From positions 37,846-101,845 of IMG/VR virus record IMGVR_UViG_3300044730_000222: a DNA stretch of 64,000 bases; one strand, written 5' to 3'. Under the pieces are notes generated by a model. It ran no database searches, had not been told where the DNA came from, and was given only the letters and a program-made list of their open reading frames with translations. Position numbers and translations under genes: made by a program. Shown here piece after piece: positions 7,305 through 60,019 of this stretch. The stretch comes from a virus. Position 1 is the stretch's first letter; every line of letters begins with the position of its first letter.

Positions 7305-7586
7305 TTACTCCATTGTTAATGCTTGCCAGGTATAAGACCAATCTTTTTTAGTCTTATGATTGTTAAACTCTTTAGATATTTCTCCGCTTTCTAGATAAAT
7401 ACCGCCCCAAACGCCCCACTCTTTACCAGACACACCAACAGCAAAACATTGTCTTGCTACTGGGCATGTTCTACAAAGAGCATCTACAAATTCTCTTGAC
7501 TCTAAATTTTCTTCATAGTTATCAAAAAATATATTTGTGTCAGATCCAAGACATTCAGCATTATCTTTCCATAAATGCTGTTTCAT
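7305..7586 (-). CDS. whiB: WhiB-family Fe-S transcription factor
   Basis: W...A.C, CRTCPVARQC, GVWGG. Confidence 0.92.
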   Translation of the reverse strand: MKQHLWKDNAECLGSDTNIFFDNYEENLESREFVDALCRTCPVARQCFAVGVSGKEWGVWGGIYLESGEISKEFNNHKTKKDWSYTWQALTME

Positions 7587-42536: not shown

Positions 42537-45500
42537 TTAAACCCTTTGTCCCTTAATTCTTTGTGAATCAATTTGTTTAATCTGTGTCATTACTGATCTT
42601 GCAATTTCATCAGGATTTGCACCAGATTTAACATTTACGCTTATACTATAATTATACACTGAATCACCATTGTATGTGCCATCATTTATGGCTTTCATAT
42701 TATCAACACCAAAATCTTTTACAGCATATTTACTCATAATAAATTCTCCAGGGGATAACATGGCTGGTATTGTGTCGCTACCCCTTGCAAATCCTCCAAA
42801 ACCAAAATATTTTGGCTTTACCATTCCACCTTTTGCCAACATCTGCATCTCTCCATAGAATCCACCACCACCACCGCCGCCACTAGGCTTAGAAAGACTT
42901 TGTTGATATGCAATTGCTTGTCCAGTATATCTTGCAGTAGACGCTGCCAAAGATGGATCCATACCCTGAAGAGTTAGTCCAGAAAACATTGCATTCGCTA
43001 TATTTGATGCAGATTCGCCAACAGAAACCGCAGCCGCTACTGCATTATTAATTTCTTCGGTAGTGCCTGCTGCAATTATAGTGCTAATTGCGCCTTCTTT
43101 AATTACTTTTTCTAAGGCTAAGGCGGCAGCAGCCGCATCGGCAGCAGCAATTGCTGCTAGTGCTGCTGCATCTGCTGCTGCTTTGTCTGCTGCTGCTTTA
43201 TTTGGATCACTAGACTCTGAAGAATCTGCAACAACGCATGAGGAAAATGTAGATGATTGCATCAATCCATTAACATATTCTTCTATATAGTTTGCTTTTC
43301 CAGAAGCACACTTTGTCTTTGATACGGACTTTACAACAGTTTTAGTTTCTCTTACTACTGCACCACCACTACTGCCCACTTTATTATTTGCTGAATATGT
43401 TCCTCCCATCGCAATAGCAAGTTGTTTTGCAAGACCAATTGCTCTTTCTAATTCCTTATTAAAATTAAAAGTAGCAAGTTCTGCATCAAGAATTGCCAAT
43501 TCTACATCTCCCCAAGCGTCTTCTTCTGCCTGCAAACCAGCAAGAGCAGCCTCAGTTCTTTGTTGAACTTTTTCTAGTGTTAAACGTGCTGCATCTAATT
43601 TACTGTTTTCTATATCAAGTAGTGCTTGTGCAGGAAGCAATTCACTAAGCCTAATAGTAAGGATTTGGCGCTCTTTAATTTCTATTGCATCAAGTTCAAC
43701 CTTACGAGCCTTTTCAATATTATAAATATCATCTTCAATACCACGAAGAATTAATTGTTGCTGTTCTCTTTGTTCTCCAAGAGTATAAATTTGATCTGCA
43801 AGAACGCTCATTTCTCTATTCTTTATTTCTCTTGCTTGTTCAATTGCATATATTCTATCCTGTAATGCAAGAACTCTGATATCTACTAGTTCTCTTTGTT
43901 CTTCAAGAGCAAATATTTGTTGTCCAATAGCAAATTGTCTATCCTCAATTTGTTTTCTAGTCATACCGTTACTTGCAATAACACGACCAATTTCTTGCTC
44001 TCTTGCTAAACGTAAGTTATCAGATTGATCTCCAACAGCCTTTTGTGCAGCCTCATTTCTCATTTCTTGTGCTAGTTGAGCGGCAGCAGAAATATCGCCT
44101 TGTGATAAAGCATCCGCAAGAGATATTCTTGCTTTTTCTTGATTTGCTATATCCTGGTTTATATCTGATATTTTTTGTAATGATTCTTCTTGTTTATCAT
44201 ATTTTTCATTAATAGAATCAACAACTCTATCCATTAACTCTAACTCATTTGAAAGGTCGGATGATTCTTCCTGTAAGGCAGCAATTGGCCGTTCAAAATT
44301 AATATCAATACTACGAGACAATGCATCTATTTGAGACTGTAAATCTTCAATTGGTTTACTAAATTCTAGTTCAACACTGCGAGATAAGTCATCAGATAAC
44401 TCTTGTAGTCTTTCAATTTCTCTAGAAAGATCTGTTTCAATGCTGCGAGATAATTTTTCAGAAGCATCCTGTGCTGTCTTTAACGGTACATCAAACCTTA
44501 ACTCTATGGCAAGTTTTGCTTTATCAATTTCAGTTTGAATTGCATCAATTCTCTTTTGAATTACATTTACCGCTTCTTGTTCTACACGGACACGCTCCTC
44601 AGCAACCCTAACTGCTTCTTCTGCCTTTCTTTTTTCTGATCTAAACTGACGCTCAATTAATGCACGGCGCAACTGAAAATATTTATTTACTTGCGAAGAA
44701 ATTTCATCAATTTGTTTTTTAATTGCAGCAACTATATCTACCTTCATATCAATGCCTAATTGTAAGTCTGCATTAATTGTTACACCTTCAAGTACATCAA
44801 AAATATCTTTAATCTTATTTGCTATTTCTTCTGATGGTACTGCTCCAGATAGTAAATCACTAATTCCCTGCGCTAACTCTGGAGTATTTGCAATTTGTGC
44901 AAGTTGCTCTTTTGTAAAAGTACCGACGCTAATTCCTAATTCTTCTGATAATATTTTTTGTAACTCACCAGTTGTTGCACCAGTAAGTGCAGCAAGCGTT
45001 GTTTGCAGTTCAGTTGTTTTATCTCTAGTGGCTTGGGCAGTTTGTCTTAATGCTAAATTAAGAAGTTCTACCTCTTTCTTAGCCCGTTCTGCCTCATCTG
45101 CCATTGCTTTTAATTCATCTGGCTTAATGTCTTTACTTACAATAGCAATAGCCAATGATTCATCCTTGATCATTTCTAGTGCTTGACCATACTCAACACC
45201 AGCAGCACGTAGTTTTAAAAATGCTTGACGTTGTGCAATAGCCCCTTCTGCAGTGCGTTTTTGACTTTCTTGAAATTCTCCAATTGGTAACTCTGCAAAC
45301 GCCTCATTGGCAGCCTTGCCAAACTCAGTTAATACAACCTTGCCCTTCTTGGTGACCGTAATAAATTGAGCCATGGTTTCTTTATCTAAACCACTAACAA
45401 AATCTAAGAATCCTCTATTGGCCTGTATATCTTTACCAATTACTTTTCCTTTTTTATCTTTTGCTATAACACCCTCTTGTAGTTGCTGTAGCACACCAGA

Positions 45501-53790: not shown

Positions 53791-54782
53791 TATAATACCC
53801 CAGGCTTACCAAAATTGGTAATGTATTTCTCCAAAATCTTATCCACTAAAAGATTTCCAGTTCCAAAGAAAGAACCCTTGTCATATTCAATTTTATACTG
53901 ATCTGTAGAATACTTTGCTACATATCTCTTATGATAGTCTAATCTTCCACACTTTAAATCATCAATAAGCATAAGGGTTGCATCTTTAATATCATAAGGA
54001 ACTACTTTATATCCCGTCGCTAATTGGAACAGATAGTTCCATCCCATAGGAAATGTTACTCCTGGGGCTACGGCAATTGTGTTTGGGCTATCTTCTGAGT
54101 CATACATATAAATAGAATCGGAGTATGCTAGTGGAACTCCTCTTGGAAAACCTGCTTGACGAATGTAAGAGTCTGTAATTTGAACCCAATCTTTAATAAT
54201 TGCAGTTTTATCTTTTGTTAACAAATAATTCCATTGTCCATCGCCTTGTGCTTGTGGGCTGTCATCATTATCCCAAACAAGTTCATTATTTTCATATGCT
54301 TTAAGAATTAAATAAGTTCTTTCCCACAATGGCATAAAGTCTGTATTATTACCAATTGTTTCATACCAAGATCTCTCATAGTAGAATCCTCCAGGAACAA
54401 TGGAGTCAATAATTGCTCTTGCTAATCCTTCATAATATGTATAGTCTTTGATTTCAGTTGCGGTAGTTCCAAGTGAACTTGGATCCACATATGGTCGCAT
54501 GATCTCAAGATTATCTTCTACAACAATATCGCCTTCTTCTGCGCTTGTAGAAGCAGTAGTATAAACTGCATCATAAATTGTCAAAGAGTATGACTCATCA
54601 TAAGTATTAAATAAATCTGGAAGAATATAAGAAATTTGAGAACTTGCTGAAGATGTTATTGTTTCTGTAACATCATTTACATTTCTAGTACCCTCATTAA
54701 TTACCAGGATGTAGTCTGTATTTGCTTCTGGCACATCATATGTGATAGAAAGTGGATAGGGTGGGAGTCTTAAGATCTGCAT
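53790..54782 (-). CDS. Head-tail adaptor
   Basis: ARAIID, GYKVVPYDIKDAT, VDKILEKY. Confidence 0.65.
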   Translation of the reverse strand: MQILRLPPYPLSITYDVPEANTDYILVINEGTRNVNDVTETITSSASSQISYILPDLFNTYDESYSLTIYDAVYTTASTSAEEGDIVVEDNLEIMRPYVDPSSLGTTATEIKDYTYYEGLARAIIDSIVPGGFYYERSWYETIGNNTDFMPLWERTYLILKAYENNELVWDNDDSPQAQGDGQWNYLLTKDKTAIIKDWVQITDSYIRQAGFPRGVPLAYSDSIYMYDSEDSPNTIAVAPGVTFPMGWNYLFQLATGYKVVPYDIKDATLMLIDDLKCGRLDYHKRYVAKYSTDQYKIEYDKGSFFGTGNLLVDKILEKYITNFGKPGVL

Positions 54783-55132
54783 TATACTTTGCCGTAATGT
54801 TTGGCTACTTCTTCAGGCGTTGCTGATCGCACTGCCTTATGCTTTAGCCACTTTTCGGATACCTCCTTAGTAACAATATTATAACCCCTTTGAAGTTGCC
54901 CCACGCCATTCCAATGAAGATTCTTTTCTGAAAATACCGCTACCTTTTCTTGAACGGTACTTGATTTAACTTCCTGATGATCCTCTCTAGGAACAAAAGG
55001 TAAAATCGCTTCTAATAAGTCTAGTTTTGTAGTTGCACCAAATGTATCAATATTATTTTTTTTAGCATATGACTTTAACTGTGGTACTGTCTTTTTATTA
55101 AATTCTTCTACTACTTCTTTTGTTGTTGCCAT
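54782..55132 (-). CDS. Rho-N/HeH-like domain protein
   Basis: KTVPQLKSYAKKNNI...TKLDLLEAI. Confidence 0.55.
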   Translation of the reverse strand: MATTKEVVEEFNKKTVPQLKSYAKKNNIDTFGATTKLDLLEAILPFVPREDHQEVKSSTVQEKVAVFSEKNLHWNGVGQLQRGYNIVTKEVSEKWLKHKAVRSATPEEVAKHYGKV

Positions 55133-55163
55133 TTTTTCCTCCACTGCTATTATATCAGAATCC

Positions 55164-55376
55164 CTATCTGTATAAACTTTGTGCTCTTCTTACTCCCGCA
55201 GGAGTCCCACTTATAATTACATTTTCACCAAAATTAGGTGTTGGTATGCATCCCAGTGCATATCTTTCTGTGATAATTCCATTAGGTCCACTAATGATTG
55301 TTCCTATACCGCCAACTGCTATAGCGCCGTCACCACTGTGTTGATGATTTACTGTTGGTTGTCCTGGATATGACAT
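55164..55376 (-). CDS. 70-aa paralog of the major capsid N-terminal arm
   Basis: YPGQPTVNHQHSGDGA, LGCIPTPNFG and SGTPAG match the MCP N-terminus; AGGAG RBS. Confidence 0.8.
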   Translation of the reverse strand: MSYPGQPTVNHQHSGDGAIAVGGIGTIISGPNGIITERYALGCIPTPNFGENVIISGTPAGVRRAQSLYR

Positions 55377-55391
55377 TTGTTCTCCTAATGT

Positions 55392-55426
55392 GATAAAGGA
55401 GGACAGTTTTACCTGCCCTCCTTATC
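55392..55426 (-). terminator. Hairpin / probable leaky terminator after MCP
   Basis: AAGGAGGGCAG-GTAAAA-CTGTCCTCCTT with short T tail. Confidence 0.65.
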
Positions 55427-55442: not shown

Positions 55443-56582
55443 CTATGCGGTTGGGTCAGAGGCTGCATCTGCGTAAGCAACTGCATCCTGCTCTTCCCAT
55501 TGCAAGCCAAAACGAACGAATACTGTGTACTCGATTGTATCTTTCTTTGGCTTGTATTCACGGTTTACGGTAATATCTCTCTGGAAACCCCATACACGGT
55601 TAGCAGGGAATGTCAAATCGACATAATCTGCTGGGTAGTAAGGAACTTCCATAACATCAATTCCAAGAACACGAGTTGTACGTGCTCCACCGAATGTCTG
55701 TCCAACACCATCTAGGTATTGCTGACGGTTACGCTCTGTACCACCAGTACGAGGTGCAAACGCTTCAGCAATTGCATCAGCGAGTGTACCGTTGTTCTTA
55801 ACAATTCCCTGGAAAGCATCTGTACCAGCATAGAACTTTAGGTTCTGCTTGATAGCACGATACTTACGTGGCATTGCAAGAATGATGTCCTGCATGACCT
55901 CTGTTGTCCAGTTGTCATCAGTAACAGTAACGAGTGCCTCATGAGCATCTCCGTCATTTTCTACTTTGTAAACAAAGCCTTCCATGATTGAAAGGAATGC
56001 TCCTGTAGAACCATCACCATTAATGGCTAGGTCTTCGATATCGTTAGCAAATGCATTGGTCATCAAGCGAACTAGATGATCTTCCAACGCACCTCCTTCA
56101 ATATTGTCTTCAAGTGATTCTGTAGATACTTCCCAATCAAGACGAATCTTTTTGGTTGTTAGTTCTACCTTAGTGAATGAAGCACCTGTGTTTGTATAAT
56201 CGTTGCTTGCTTGTGCAGCAGCACGAATAACACGCTCACCAACGTTAACCTTCTCGATTTCCATGGTGTTTGCTCGCATTGTAACTCTACGACCATCTTT
56301 GGCGAGAACTGTTGCATCCCACACGTAGTCGATGAAGCGGCGAGCCTGCTCTGGCAGAAGAATACCACCTGGTGTACCAGTTGGACTTACTGCGTTCGGG
56401 CCGTTTGTCACACCAAAGTTTGGTGTAGCAATGTTACCCAGTTGAGCGCCAACATCAGATGTGGTTGGACTGGTTGCTGTTGCACCGCCAATGTCACCTG
56501 AAGCGAAAGCACCATCACCTGCGTGTTGATGCGCTACGGTTGGAGCACCTGGATAATTTTTTACGATTTCTTGTTCCGACAT
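55443..56582 (-). CDS. Major capsid protein (HK97 fold)
   Basis: GILLPEQARRFID, EDNIEG, FANDIEDLAINGD; AGGAGG RBS; follows the scaffold. Confidence 0.92.
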   Translation of the reverse strand: MSEQEIVKNYPGAPTVAHQHAGDGAFASGDIGGATATSPTTSDVGAQLGNIATPNFGVTNGPNAVSPTGTPGGILLPEQARRFIDYVWDATVLAKDGRRVTMRANTMEIEKVNVGERVIRAAAQASNDYTNTGASFTKVELTTKKIRLDWEVSTESLEDNIEGGALEDHLVRLMTNAFANDIEDLAINGDGSTGAFLSIMEGFVYKVENDGDAHEALVTVTDDNWTTEVMQDIILAMPRKYRAIKQNLKFYAGTDAFQGIVKNNGTLADAIAEAFAPRTGGTERNRQQYLDGVGQTFGGARTTRVLGIDVMEVPYYPADYVDLTFPANRVWGFQRDITVNREYKPKKDTIEYTVFVRFGLQWEEQDAVAYADAASDPTA

Positions 56583-56609: not shown

Positions 56610-57191
56610 TTAATTAAATAGGTCGGCTGTTTTGAGGAAACGTCCGCCCCATAGGGATTTTTGAGTTTTCATTTCTGGAAACTCCTGCACGATCTCGCCT
56701 AGATCGCCAGACTTGCGGAAAGCAGTATCTTTTTCTACAAGATCTACTCGCTTTCCAAACTCATTAAAAGTTCCCTTTACTTGGCTTACCTCATTTGCTA
56801 CAGACTTTACTTCGCCTGTAACTGTTTCAAGGGACTTTGTGATTGCTTCAACGTTAGCCTGCATAGACTTAACTGTTTCAGCAAGATTGCTCAAGGCATT
56901 AGTAAGAGAGTCATTGATTTCAGCAACAGACTTTGCAATCTCTGCTGCACTATCAACTACTGCATCTACTGACTTTTCCGCTGCGATGTCAACAACAGGA
57001 GCATCTGCTACTGGTGCTGAATCTGCCACTGGCTCTGCAACAGGTGCTTCTGCAGAAACTTCTGCTGGAGCATCTACTGGAGCCTCTGCTACAGCATCTG
57101 CTGGAGCCTCTGGAGCAACCTCAACATGTTCAACTACTTCTGCTGCATCTGCAACTGGTGCATCTACAACTTCCATTGTTTCTTCTGTCAT
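56610..57191 (-). CDS. Nested in-frame scaffold protein (193 aa)
   Basis: Internal AAGGAGG 8 nt before ATG 57191, at the domain boundary. Confidence 0.6.
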   Translation of the reverse strand: MTEETMEVVDAPVADAAEVVEHVEVAPEAPADAVAEAPVDAPAEVSAEAPVAEPVADSAPVADAPVVDIAAEKSVDAVVDSAAEIAKSVAEINDSLTNALSNLAETVKSMQANVEAITKSLETVTGEVKSVANEVSQVKGTFNEFGKRVDLVEKDTAFRKSGDLGEIVQEFPEMKTQKSLWGGRFLKTADLFN

Positions 57192-57932
57192 AGGATTTTC
57201 CTCCTTTGTAATCTTAATTGTCCTAATGCCTTTTGCACTATCAACTAAGAACTTTACTGTTGTGATATCTTCTTGATCTTCAACAAATCCAATGTTTTTC
57301 ATTGAACCATTGCAAGATGGACAAGTTTCATCAGAATCTTTTGAAAGTCTTACGATATCATCTGTTTTGCACCAATAAACTGTATCAACAACTGCCTTTG
57401 CTAAATACCCGCCAAGTTGTCCCTTTTCAATAGAGATAACATTAGCAAATTGATTTGCTGGGTTGTCAACAAGCGATAATTCATGCAAGTCGTACTCTTT
57501 AATTATACGCACTGATTTATCAATTTTTTCATCATACATGTCATCAGACTTTGTAATATTTCCACCAATTGAAAAACCAGTTAAAGTTCCATCAAGGACT
57601 TTCTCCCAAGTATCCTGGGCACCTTTTGAAACATAAGCAGAAACATAGACTCCGCTATAAAACTTTTTTACCTGTGGATCAAAATAGCGATCCTCTTTAA
57701 AAGAAACAACCTTGCCTACAGCACTGGGTTGATGCATCTCACGAAGGTTGCCACGGAATTTCTTAAATGCCTCTATACTTGCTTCTGTCGTAACGATATC
57801 GCCTTGCTTATCTACGTTATCTAGAGTAGCAAAGCCAGAAACAATACGACGTTCTTGATCTACTTTACCAATGGGCATTGAAAAGCGAACATTGTCGCCA
57901 TCAGTAACCCAGTGTGCTTTATTTATAGTCAT
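56610..57932 (-). CDS. HK97-type prohead protease fused to scaffold
   Basis: VSGFAT.DNVDKQGD, REMH, GFSIGG, ELSLVDNPAN; A/P/E/V-rich linker; coiled coil. Confidence 0.9.
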   Translation of the reverse strand: MTINKAHWVTDGDNVRFSMPIGKVDQERRIVSGFATLDNVDKQGDIVTTEASIEAFKKFRGNLREMHQPSAVGKVVSFKEDRYFDPQVKKFYSGVYVSAYVSKGAQDTWEKVLDGTLTGFSIGGNITKSDDMYDEKIDKSVRIIKEYDLHELSLVDNPANQFANVISIEKGQLGGYLAKAVVDTVYWCKTDDIVRLSKDSDETCPSCNGSMKNIGFVEDQEDITTVKFLVDSAKGIRTIKITKEENPMTEETMEVVDAPVADAAEVVEHVEVAPEAPADAVAEAPVDAPAEVSAEAPVAEPVADSAPVADAPVVDIAAEKSVDAVVDSAAEIAKSVAEINDSLTNALSNLAETVKSMQANVEAITKSLETVTGEVKSVANEVSQVKGTFNEFGKRVDLVEKDTAFRKSGDLGEIVQEFPEMKTQKSLWGGRFLKTADLFN

Positions 57933-57972: not shown

Positions 57973-59616
57973 CTATTGAGACGATCTGCCTTCACCTTGT
58001 GCATTTCTTCCAGATATGGTTGTAGGAGAATCTGATTCATTATTTGCTCTTTCAGCATCTCTTTCTCTGTTACCCGCCAAGTTTGCCCTAGCATCTGTGG
58101 CTTGTCTAGCACTCATTGTAAATGGGTCATCTCCATCTGGACGCTGTGACATGTTTAGTATTTCACGTGCCTCATTTGGAGTAATAACCTGAGTCTTGAC
58201 ATACCGCTCAATAATCTGAGATTGGGCAATTTCATCTGTAAGTGTAAGTTCATTAAACTTAAGATCAAGAATGTCAGTCTTTTCCTTAACTATCTTATTT
58301 ACGATCTTCTCCAAATGACGCTGGGCTGGACGAGAAACCTGCTCTTTAAAAGTTCTATCCTGTGCAAGGGCAGCAGCGATAGCAGCAGAGTCAGATCCGC
58401 CAAGTTTTGAAATAGGAACCTGATGGGCAACCAAAATATCATCACGATTTTGTTTACGATATTTTTCAAATGAACCTTCTTGGACACCATTTTCAATAGG
58501 TTGCATACTAAACTCAACCTTATTTCCATCTGTATCTCCAGGAAGTGGAATATATAATGTTCTGTGATTTTGTCCTTTTAGACCTGTTTGCATAAAACGG
58601 AACATCTTGTCTTCAGCATCAGCAGATAGTTTTGCACCTTTTACTGTGATGATATATCTTGGTACCGCTTTGTTTTGGAAATAATCAATATTATACTGAG
58701 CAGCAAGAGAGTCTCCAATAAGAGAAGAAACGGCAGATAAAATATCTGGAACCCCGTAAAATGTATTTAAAGGAGAGTATTGTTTAAGATGTAAAATTTC
58801 GTTTGGTCTTTGATCTGCAGTAAGAGGATTTGTATTTTTTGCACCAAAGTTTCTAAAGTATACTAACTTCTGACCAATGATTTGTACAAAGCCATCACGC
58901 AAACGACGGACACGAACTGTGGTTGCTGGAATGTGTCCAACATAACCAATCTCTCCAGTTACGGTACGACCAATCTCAAGGAAGCCATTTCCTGTAGCCT
59001 GAACATCTGTATAGAACTTCTCCATTGTTTGCTGGAAAGTATCCTCATCATTTAAAGATTCTAGCCAGTCACGAACCTCTAGTTTCATACGCTCTACACG
59101 ACGACGAGCACGATCAACGGCATCATCATCATCGTTCATTTCAAACCTTAACATTGTTCTATCTGTTAATTCAAATTTATAACCAAGACCTACAACATTT
59201 TCTACCTTTGCATCAATAGCAGCATGATTAGCAAAAGAAGTATCATAATAACTTGCTAGTTCATAAAGGTTATATGGTGGTGTGATTACATCAAATAAGC
59301 CATAGCCATTTTGATATACCGTTCCAGGATTAATCTGTTTTGACTGTGCCCCGTCTTTTCCAGAAGGAAAGGCGTTTGCATCATTTAAATATGCAGGAGT
59401 TGGAGCAATTGCAGGATAACGAGGATTGTAAGTCTCTGGAGCCATAGAATACTTGGAAACTGTTCTGCTAGTTCTGCGCTTGAAGTTAGTGTCTATGCCA
59501 GACAGATCTTTAAGTTGGTCCCATGATTTTAAGAAAGGGTCACTCTCAAGAAACTGATTGTTTCCTGTATCTTCTGTGTTTAGGCTTGCTTGAATATATT
59601 CAAATTCTCTATCCAT
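57973..59616 (-). CDS. Portal protein
   Basis: TGNGFLE, YGVPD, YFQNKAVP, HQVP, TPNEAR. Confidence 0.92.
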   Translation of the reverse strand: MDREFEYIQASLNTEDTGNNQFLESDPFLKSWDQLKDLSGIDTNFKRRTSRTVSKYSMAPETYNPRYPAIAPTPAYLNDANAFPSGKDGAQSKQINPGTVYQNGYGLFDVITPPYNLYELASYYDTSFANHAAIDAKVENVVGLGYKFELTDRTMLRFEMNDDDDAVDRARRRVERMKLEVRDWLESLNDEDTFQQTMEKFYTDVQATGNGFLEIGRTVTGEIGYVGHIPATTVRVRRLRDGFVQIIGQKLVYFRNFGAKNTNPLTADQRPNEILHLKQYSPLNTFYGVPDILSAVSSLIGDSLAAQYNIDYFQNKAVPRYIITVKGAKLSADAEDKMFRFMQTGLKGQNHRTLYIPLPGDTDGNKVEFSMQPIENGVQEGSFEKYRKQNRDDILVAHQVPISKLGGSDSAAIAAALAQDRTFKEQVSRPAQRHLEKIVNKIVKEKTDILDLKFNELTLTDEIAQSQIIERYVKTQVITPNEAREILNMSQRPDGDDPFTMSARQATDARANLAGNRERDAERANNESDSPTTISGRNAQGEGRSSQ

Positions 59617-60019
59617 TTTCGTATGCATCTCTTCCGTGTGTTTTTAATGTTTTTTGTGCAGCGTCAACAGCGCCTAGATCATTTAGTGAAGGAATAAGTC
59701 CTTGATTAAATCTATCTACCTGCTCGCTATACTCTTCGTCTGTAACTCTCGTTAGACCTGGCACAAATACCGCCTGACCATCACCCTCATCGCCATAGAA
59801 AACTGCTGTTTGTTTTAATTTTGCAATCTGGGCAATATCTCCACGAAGCGACTCAATGTTTAAAACATTGCCATCTCCATCTGTAAACCACTTGCCATTA
59901 GCCTTTTTATAAACATAAAGACCCCAATTGTAGTCTTTCTCAATCACCTTACGGCGAACATTACTTACAATGGGTTTGCCAGTTTTAGGATTAATCAATG
60001 GATTATTTTTAGAACTCAT
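59609..60019 (-). CDS. Conserved protein preceding portal
   Basis: Leaderless TGCTATACT promoter; overlaps the portal start. Confidence 0.65.
   Translation of the reverse strand: MSSKNNPLINPKTGKPIVSNVRRKVIEKDYNWGLYVYKKANGKWFTDGDGNVLNIESLRGDIAQIAKLKQTAVFYGDEGDGQAVFVPGLTRVTDEEYSEQVDRFNQGLIPSLNDLGAVDAAQKTLKTHGRDAYENG

Follow-up and report, generated by a model that had tools for sequence, protein, structure and literature searches.

Why should a phage carry, directly behind the gene for its major capsid protein (MCP), a second and very short gene whose product resembles the beginning of that same MCP? The question is raised by a 70-aa open reading frame (ORF; 55164..55376, minus strand, stop included), hereafter the mini-gene, in a window of 64,000 nucleotides, by which we mean the whole stretch of DNA analyzed. 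The window makes up the final 64 kb of an IMG/VR virus record of 101.8 kb with an estimated completeness of 94% and a G+C content of ~36%. Its head module lies on the minus strand in the order portal (57973-59628), S78-type prohead protease with a long scaffold-like tail (56610-57932), MCP, mini-gene, 120-aa Rho_N-like protein, and adaptor-like protein; a tape measure protein of 2533 aa follows further on. In the protease, the S78 part is joined to a Cys-rich segment, a long acidic Pro/Ala/Glu-rich linker, and a coiled-coil tail, an architecture that amounts to a protease-scaffold fusion. The 120-aa protein (54782-55144, minus strand) has a Rho_N/SAP-like motif at its N terminus and probably starts at the ATG at 55132, behind GGAGGA; gp28 of Streptomyces phage Karp and gp80 of Rhodococcus phage Grayson are its positional counterparts after the MCP.

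The MCP is of the HK97 type (phrog_1623, E 2e-71; PF05065 precomputed on close homologs) and has 379 aa when counted from its conserved ATG (55443..56582, minus strand). The mechanical ORF call had put its start at GTG 56591, with the conserved ATG three codons later. We place the start at ATG 56582 because the GTG is absent in relatives, whereas the ATG, with a leader beginning MSEQ, is common to the loci examined. The leader is therefore eight residues long (MSEQEIVK, codons 1-8; 56559..56582, minus strand) and is followed by NYPG. Across relatives, the leader varies in length and the I-V-K-N-Y-P junction is kept, and the form M-S-x..E-x-[IV]-[IV]-[KRE] is common to Karp and Grayson. Because the junction is conserved, distant relatives have a homologous leader, and the phage encodes a prohead protease, we infer that the leader is a putative propeptide that is removed and that the mature MCP would start with N-Y-P-G. 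Codons 9-85 (56328..56558, minus strand) encode a Gly-rich, lineage-specific extension and the first residues of the N-arm; by BLASTP and alignments, this is the segment to which the mini-gene is paralogous.

Indeed, the mini-protein aligned with the MCP frame with 30 identities over 66 residues (45%, E 4e-14), its residues 2-62 matching MCP-frame residues 12-77, just as a reading made from the letters of the window, the sequence-only reading, had described. Only two copies of the MCP N-terminal segment are found in the genome, the MCP's own and the mini-gene. The mini-protein starts with M-S-Y-P-G and the MCP past its leader with N-Y-P-G; the Met-Ser start is kept, and exactly the seven MCP leader residues that follow are absent. 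The earlier statement that the ORF begins where the MCP would begin after leader removal is thus correct. A Shine-Dalgarno sequence, AGGAG (55382..55386, minus strand), lies five bases before the ATG, and nearly all relatives have TAGGAG, AAGGAG, or a close variant at the same site. A ribosome-binding region duplicated together with the MCP start looked suggestive in the window's clade, but the likeness was generally not above that of shuffled sequences. A full MCP paralog of the gp24 kind was rejected as well, since the product has only 70 aa and the likeness stops at MCP-frame residue 77 (~residue 74 from the ATG).

Is this ORF a gene at all? A protein search returned 40 homolog clusters of 42 to 83 aa (most of them 69 to 83 aa) that were 49 to 93% identical to the query over the aligned part, and when IMG/VR was scanned three times, with the mini-protein or alignments of it as the query, well over 100 loci were obtained. 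Conservation and synteny, which had been proposed as a check, were found in more than 100 contigs: the mini-gene lies 63 to 71 nt after the MCP stop in every locus selected with the mini-protein that has intact upstream sequence, with the exception of L118. The reading frame was intact in all of the >100 copies examined. Pairwise dN/dS ranged from 0.07 to 0.47 for the mini-gene (mostly 0.1 to 0.3, at dS 0.4 to 1.0), from 0.04 to 0.24 for the MCP extension, and from 0.02 to 0.14 for the MCP core. In 57 diverse copies (41 to 90% identical to the window's protein), eight columns were invariant and eight nearly so; M-S-Y is invariant and P-G nearly invariant, several Gly residues are invariant, and the Pro of G-T-P-x-G is nearly invariant. 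Judged by this pattern of substitution, the mini-gene is a genuine protein-coding gene under purifying selection where it is present, and the earlier argument against a junk duplication holds. That it could be a functionless, decaying remnant of a tandem MCP duplication would agree with its frequent absence from relatives (see below) and with a broken MCP/mini-gene chimera in L118, which indicates that unequal recombination occurs here, but intact frames throughout, dN/dS well below 1 at such dS values, the invariant columns, and the conserved Shine-Dalgarno sequence make a remnant hardly credible. Two metatranscriptome studies yielded contigs from RNA libraries that cover the ORF, among them one that spans the ORF start and the hairpin upstream of it; these contigs lend weak support to the gene, as they may derive from DNA carry-over and give no expression level. 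The MCP was covered by RNA contigs at far greater depth than the mini-gene, and some of these contigs stop near the hairpin. Neither was accepted as evidence for termination, since genes cannot be ranked by contig depth and hairpins cause breaks in assembly. In two RNA runs (X3 and X5), the mini-gene lay outside the coverage.

Which part of the MCP was copied? The sequence-only reading had called it the N-terminal arm, and this label has to be given up. Alignment of the MCP with those of Karp, Grayson, and a Pseudomonas phage divides its beginning into three parts, a short leader, a linker, and a conserved N-arm helix. The N-arm helix, LLPEQARRFIDY, aligns with those of Karp and Grayson, whereas the linker, which in Karp and Grayson has only ~10 residues, rich in Gly, comprises ~65 in this freshwater lineage. 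What was copied is a ~55-residue Gly-rich insertion that is specific to the freshwater lineage and lies between leader and N-arm helix; of the N-arm itself, only the first ~10 residues are inside the copy. Since the segment is a lineage-specific insertion upstream of the N-arm helix that is absent from Karp and Grayson, a duplicate of the HK97 N-arm is the wrong description, and the mini-gene is rather a free, leaderless copy of the Gly-rich extension that precedes the N-arm. In Karp and Grayson, the MCP runs straight to the Rho_N-like gene, with neither the insertion nor a mini-gene. In distant mini-proteins, the likeness extends through GTPxGI(R/L)LPxQxxF, that is, the first MCP N-arm residues; because these residues are ancestral to the MCP, the copying went from the MCP to the mini-gene. 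Judged by these alignments, the origin of the mini-gene is thus a partial duplication at the 5' end of the MCP gene within an abundant freshwater actinophage lineage, and its product ends in a new basic tail. The extension is rich in Gly, Thr, Ala, and Pro, and no helix was predicted in it (AlphaFold2, low confidence). Among MCPs that are 78 to 95% identical, the core is nearly invariant, and the variation gathers in the N-terminal extension and a few loops. In some lineages that do not carry the mini-gene (e.g., L208, L211, and L223), the N-Y-P-G...H-x-H start of the MCP extension is lost or replaced.

The two products differ in charge. The mean net charge is -2.8 for the MCP extension versus +1.0 for the mini-protein, with a pI of ~4.4 versus ~8, and the central part of the mini-protein, which has diverged from the extension, is somewhat more hydrophobic; the two may fold differently. 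The C-terminal tail is conserved in its basic character and is strongly Arg-rich in a distant group. These features could be taken to indicate an internal head protein whose Arg-rich tail binds packaged DNA and whose MCP-like part anchors it to the inner wall, and the shift in pI and the kept character of the tail would agree with that. However, the tail is short in the window's own clade, with only three or four basic residues, and the side of the shell on which the MCP extension lies is not indicated, so that we regard such a role as quite improbable.

Searches with the mini-protein led to no known family. It matched nothing in Pfam or PHROGs, no solved structure below E 0.08, no record by tblastn among 50,697 isolate phage records, and no longer protein at E 0.01, and its scores in the ESM Atlas (<=0.84) were at chance level. 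With Pfam, PHROG, and structure matches absent, membership in a known decoration family (gpD-like, beta-tulip, OB-fold Dec, Ig-like Hoc, or Soc) was rejected. A profile search of 1.84 billion representatives returned only mini-proteins, one MCP fragment, and two weak matches to long actinobacterial proteins (P0165 and P0166; E ~1e-5, three stretches each). The matched part of these is a repeated ~130-residue domain beginning L-D-T-R-P-G-x-x-T-V-D; its P-G-x-P-T-V...G-x-G-A resemblance is curious, but the matches are probably compositional. In an 89-aa metagenome protein (P0161), the C-terminal 58 residues are mini-protein and the N-terminal 30 resemble part of an NHL-type repeat; the two parts meet at the word G-P-N-G-I-I-T, and the protein is probably a chimeric assembly. 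The AlphaFold2 model of the mini-protein, made from a 57-row alignment, consisted of a single beta-hairpin with a mean pLDDT of 49.6, a confidence too low for use, and that of the MCP (mean pLDDT 31, from a shallow 44-row alignment of 78 to 95% identity) was unusable. Complex prediction with two MCP N-terminal domains and the mini-protein gave a score of 0.01, which makes no call for or against binding.

How might the mini-gene be expressed? A G+C-rich stem-loop (55393..55426, minus strand) lies between the MCP stop and the mini-gene. Its 11-bp stem (~55396-55423) is followed by a weak U tract, and the 96-nt region folds with -27.7 kcal/mol (z -4.2 versus shuffles); the ORF with its own AGGAG behind a hairpin, as first noticed, is therefore confirmed. 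Of 66 distinct intergenic sequences, 65 have a predicted stem and the remaining one is the 1155-nt duplicated segment of L118; the stems differ in sequence across relatives, which indicates compensatory changes. Some relatives have a clear U tract after the stem, and the hairpin is retained in genomes that do not carry the mini-gene. The stem-loop resembles a leaky terminator or a stabilizer of the 3' end, and a position behind such an element fits expression of the mini-gene below the level of the MCP. Just after the mini-gene stop and before the next head gene, we found a promoter-like site with an extended -10 element, TG-n-TATAAT (55148..55176, minus strand). At empty sites (L168, L191, L196, and L205), the hairpin is followed by TTCTG(A/G)TATAAT and then by the next gene. 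Since this element directly follows the hairpin where the mini-gene is missing, the mini-gene sits between a terminator-like hairpin and a promoter-like site; the conserved element is probably the promoter of the head-completion genes. In L118 (L118:4616-5770, IMGVR_UViG_3300012286_000260), a second hairpin-Shine-Dalgarno unit lies between the MCP and an intact mini-gene. This unit is followed by a chimera, in which the first ~14 codons of the mini-gene run out of frame into the MCP body, beginning near the G-A-N-Y-G region; the arrangement is either a tandem duplication by unequal recombination between the paralogs or an assembly oddity.

If the mini-protein were a required part of the capsid, as a filler of capsid sites would be, every phage with this MCP should have it. 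The first three locus sets had been chosen with the mini-protein and were therefore biased towards carriers, and some contigs already showed an MCP with extension, the hairpin, and then directly the Rho_N-like gene. In a sample selected by the MCP only (80 loci plus three fetched earlier, of which 82 were scored), the mini-gene was present in 25 loci and absent from 55, and the flank was too short in two. All of these MCPs have the N-terminal extension, and the N-Y-P-G start is missing in a few lineages. Near-identical MCPs differed in the presence of the mini-gene: L194 has it and L196 and L197 do not, L163 has it and L191 does not, and L202 has it and L205 and L212 do not. When five genomes lacking the gene were searched with the mini-protein profile, only the MCP's own N terminus was matched; two of the five have a completeness rating of 100%, and terminal repeats are present in one. 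Mapped on a tree of the MCP core, the distribution of the gene takes at least nine changes, seven of which are forced by well-supported branches. The intergenic sequences of carriers and noncarriers with the same MCP differ, and thus the polymorphism looks like module exchange by recombination rather than simple deletion. Read from the tree and the flanks together, the mini-gene was gained, lost, or swapped by recombination at least seven to nine times among close relatives. An obvious link to genome length was not seen: contigs of 107.7 and 112.0 kb have the gene, and complete genomes of 105.9 and 114.4 kb do not.

Absence from so many close relatives, complete genomes included, shows that the capsid does not require the mini-gene, which is an optional accessory, and any structural role must be nonessential. 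The proposal of a filler of capsid sites, in the sense of a needed component, is therefore not tenable: 55 of 80 relatives selected by the MCP, including complete genomes and genomes with near-identical MCPs, do not have the gene. The sequence-only reading had itself named absence from close relatives as counting against its proposal, and this is borne out in part. A filler at the portal vertex, one version of the idea that the mini-protein docks on the capsid, would still be compatible with low expression and dispensability.

Dispensability and a position behind the hairpin that suggests low expression would also agree with a modulator of assembly or maturation, that is, a free, leaderless extension that acts within the infected cell without becoming part of the particle. 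Such an extension might compete with the N termini of the MCP for the protease-scaffold or for each other and in this way tune assembly or its timing; it is exactly the leader on which the protease would act that is absent from the mini-protein, which mimics the MCP N terminus and tracks it in evolution. On the other hand, nothing points to a contact between the mini-protein and the protease-scaffold, the same MCP is assembled in phages that do not have the gene, and such a role would have no obvious need of the basic tail and hydrophobic middle. We consider a modulator unlikely.

The tracking just mentioned concerns the first ~21 residues of the mini-protein, which change in parallel with those of its own MCP at homologous positions across clades. 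The changes comprise PTV.HQH versus PTE.HxH; HTH occurs in both paralogs, HxH has given way to (P/A)LN in both, and in L030 both proteins have a one-residue deletion. Over the first 21 residues, the identity between the paralogs was 0.54 within a genome versus 0.41 between clades (nine clade representatives, permutation p ~1e-4); over the rest of the domain it was 0.42 versus 0.40 (p 0.07), that is, without excess. Recent gene conversion does not account for this: within the first 26 codons the DNA of the paralogs is only ~51 to 62% identical, and matched residues are written with different synonymous codons. Ancient micro-conversion is a possible source of the signal. The parallel change is suggestive of a shared partner or a homotypic contact, and the signal leans largely on one deep split (HxH versus LN clades), with a few smaller events besides. 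A universal metal site at HxH was rejected, as one clade has (P/A)LN in its place in both paralogs.

Parallel change could have a quite different background. Capsid proteins trigger bacterial immunity (PMC9712102), and the mini-protein could be an antidefense mimic, a decoy of the exposed MCP N terminus that occupies a capsid-sensing immune sensor of the host. A decoy would explain why the mini-protein tracks the MCP and why the gene comes and goes like other counterdefense genes; the patchy distribution with at least seven to nine changes on the MCP tree and the fact that the extension evolves faster than any other part of the MCP, which is otherwise frozen, agree with this. The argument is purely circumstantial, however, and a place in the head module together with dependence on read-through from the MCP suits a late structural gene better than an early counterdefense gene. 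To our knowledge, decoys built from capsid fragments have not been described. We therefore hold an antidefense mimic to be rather improbable, and slightly more improbable still the full form of the idea, in which the mini-protein mimics the mature capsid N terminus before an immune sensor and the matched fast evolution and the gain and loss are traces of an arms race and not of capsid architecture.

Our tentative preference, held with less than even confidence, is that the mini-protein is an optional low-copy protein that binds to the capsid via the contacts used by the MCP extension. The prohead protease would remove the MCP leader at K8|N9, and the mini-protein, after loss of its Met, would start with S-Y-P-G and thereby mimic the mature MCP N terminus. 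Read-through of the hairpin on MCP transcripts would provide small amounts of mini-protein, which would dock on the capsid by a homotypic contact of its first ~21 residues and also by the GTPxG-I-x-L-P-x-Q strand at the root of the N-arm. There it would serve as an accessory of the cement or decoration kind that the phage can do without, perhaps at sites that lack an MCP arm. [quoted passage not shown] What remains of our confidence beyond this reading and the four alternatives weighed above goes to something else.

How does this gene compare with known systems? Like the decoration and cement proteins gpD of lambda, Dec of P74-26, and Soc of T4, it is a small head-module gene next to the MCP. 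Soc and Hoc are optional or patchily distributed among relatives, and location in the head module and patchy occurrence (25 present, 55 absent) are found for the mini-gene, too. The mini-protein, however, is unlike any known decoration fold or family and is derived from the MCP, and the place of its gene behind a terminator-like hairpin suggests a low copy number and not one per MCP. In T4, the vertex protein gp24 is a duplicate of the capsid gene, gp23, that was kept as a separate gene beside it. However, gp24 is a full subunit with the HK97 fold, whereas the mini-gene copies only ~75 N-terminal residues, which include no part of that fold, and is dispensable. HK97-type propeptides or delta domains resemble the MCP extension in that the latter, too, is N-terminal to the N-arm, behind a short leader with a conserved junction, in a phage with an S78 protease. 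Delta domains are coiled-coil, in contrast to the Gly-rich extension, for which no helix is predicted, and the extension would stay on the mature MCP if cleavage falls at I-V-K|N. Finally, the Karp/Grayson-type MCPs (phrog_1623) of large Streptomyces and Rhodococcus siphophages share ~40% identity over the HK97 core, a homologous leader and N-arm helix, and the gene order portal, protease, MCP, and Rho_N-like small protein, but have ~10 Gly-rich linker residues instead of ~65 and no mini-gene.

Capsid accessory proteins are usually unrelated to the shell protein to which they bind. Here, the flexible N-terminal extension alone of a shell protein was copied into a separate, leaderless gene, and the N-terminal ends of the MCP and the mini-protein have stayed matched over a long divergence. 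The mini-gene can thus be seen as a capsid accessory gene of a variant type, built from the N-terminal extension of the very shell protein that it accompanies, and it is polymorphic in nature. It raises the question of whether "arm donation in trans" is a route by which decoration proteins arise, and near-identical phages with and without the gene are a natural control for what a free copy of a capsid arm does. From the comparison of the two paralogs, the site at which this MCP family is likely cleaved during maturation can be placed as well.

To which hosts does this lineage belong? We know of no cultured isolate of this phage. A whiB-family gene (window 7398-7571, record 45243-45416, minus strand; PF02467, E 5e-14) supports an actinobacterial host, and together with the head module and the likeness of the MCP core to actinophage MCPs, it points to a freshwater actinophage. 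Host assignment from bins of metagenome-assembled genomes was rejected as unreliable, since the relatives were binned with many different phyla that contradict each other. The lineage is very abundant in lakes: at E <= 1e-10, 3929 clusters of the MCP family were counted among the candidates scored from lake metagenomes, and the MCP is prominent in metatranscriptomes as well, the family having been found in many freshwater runs.
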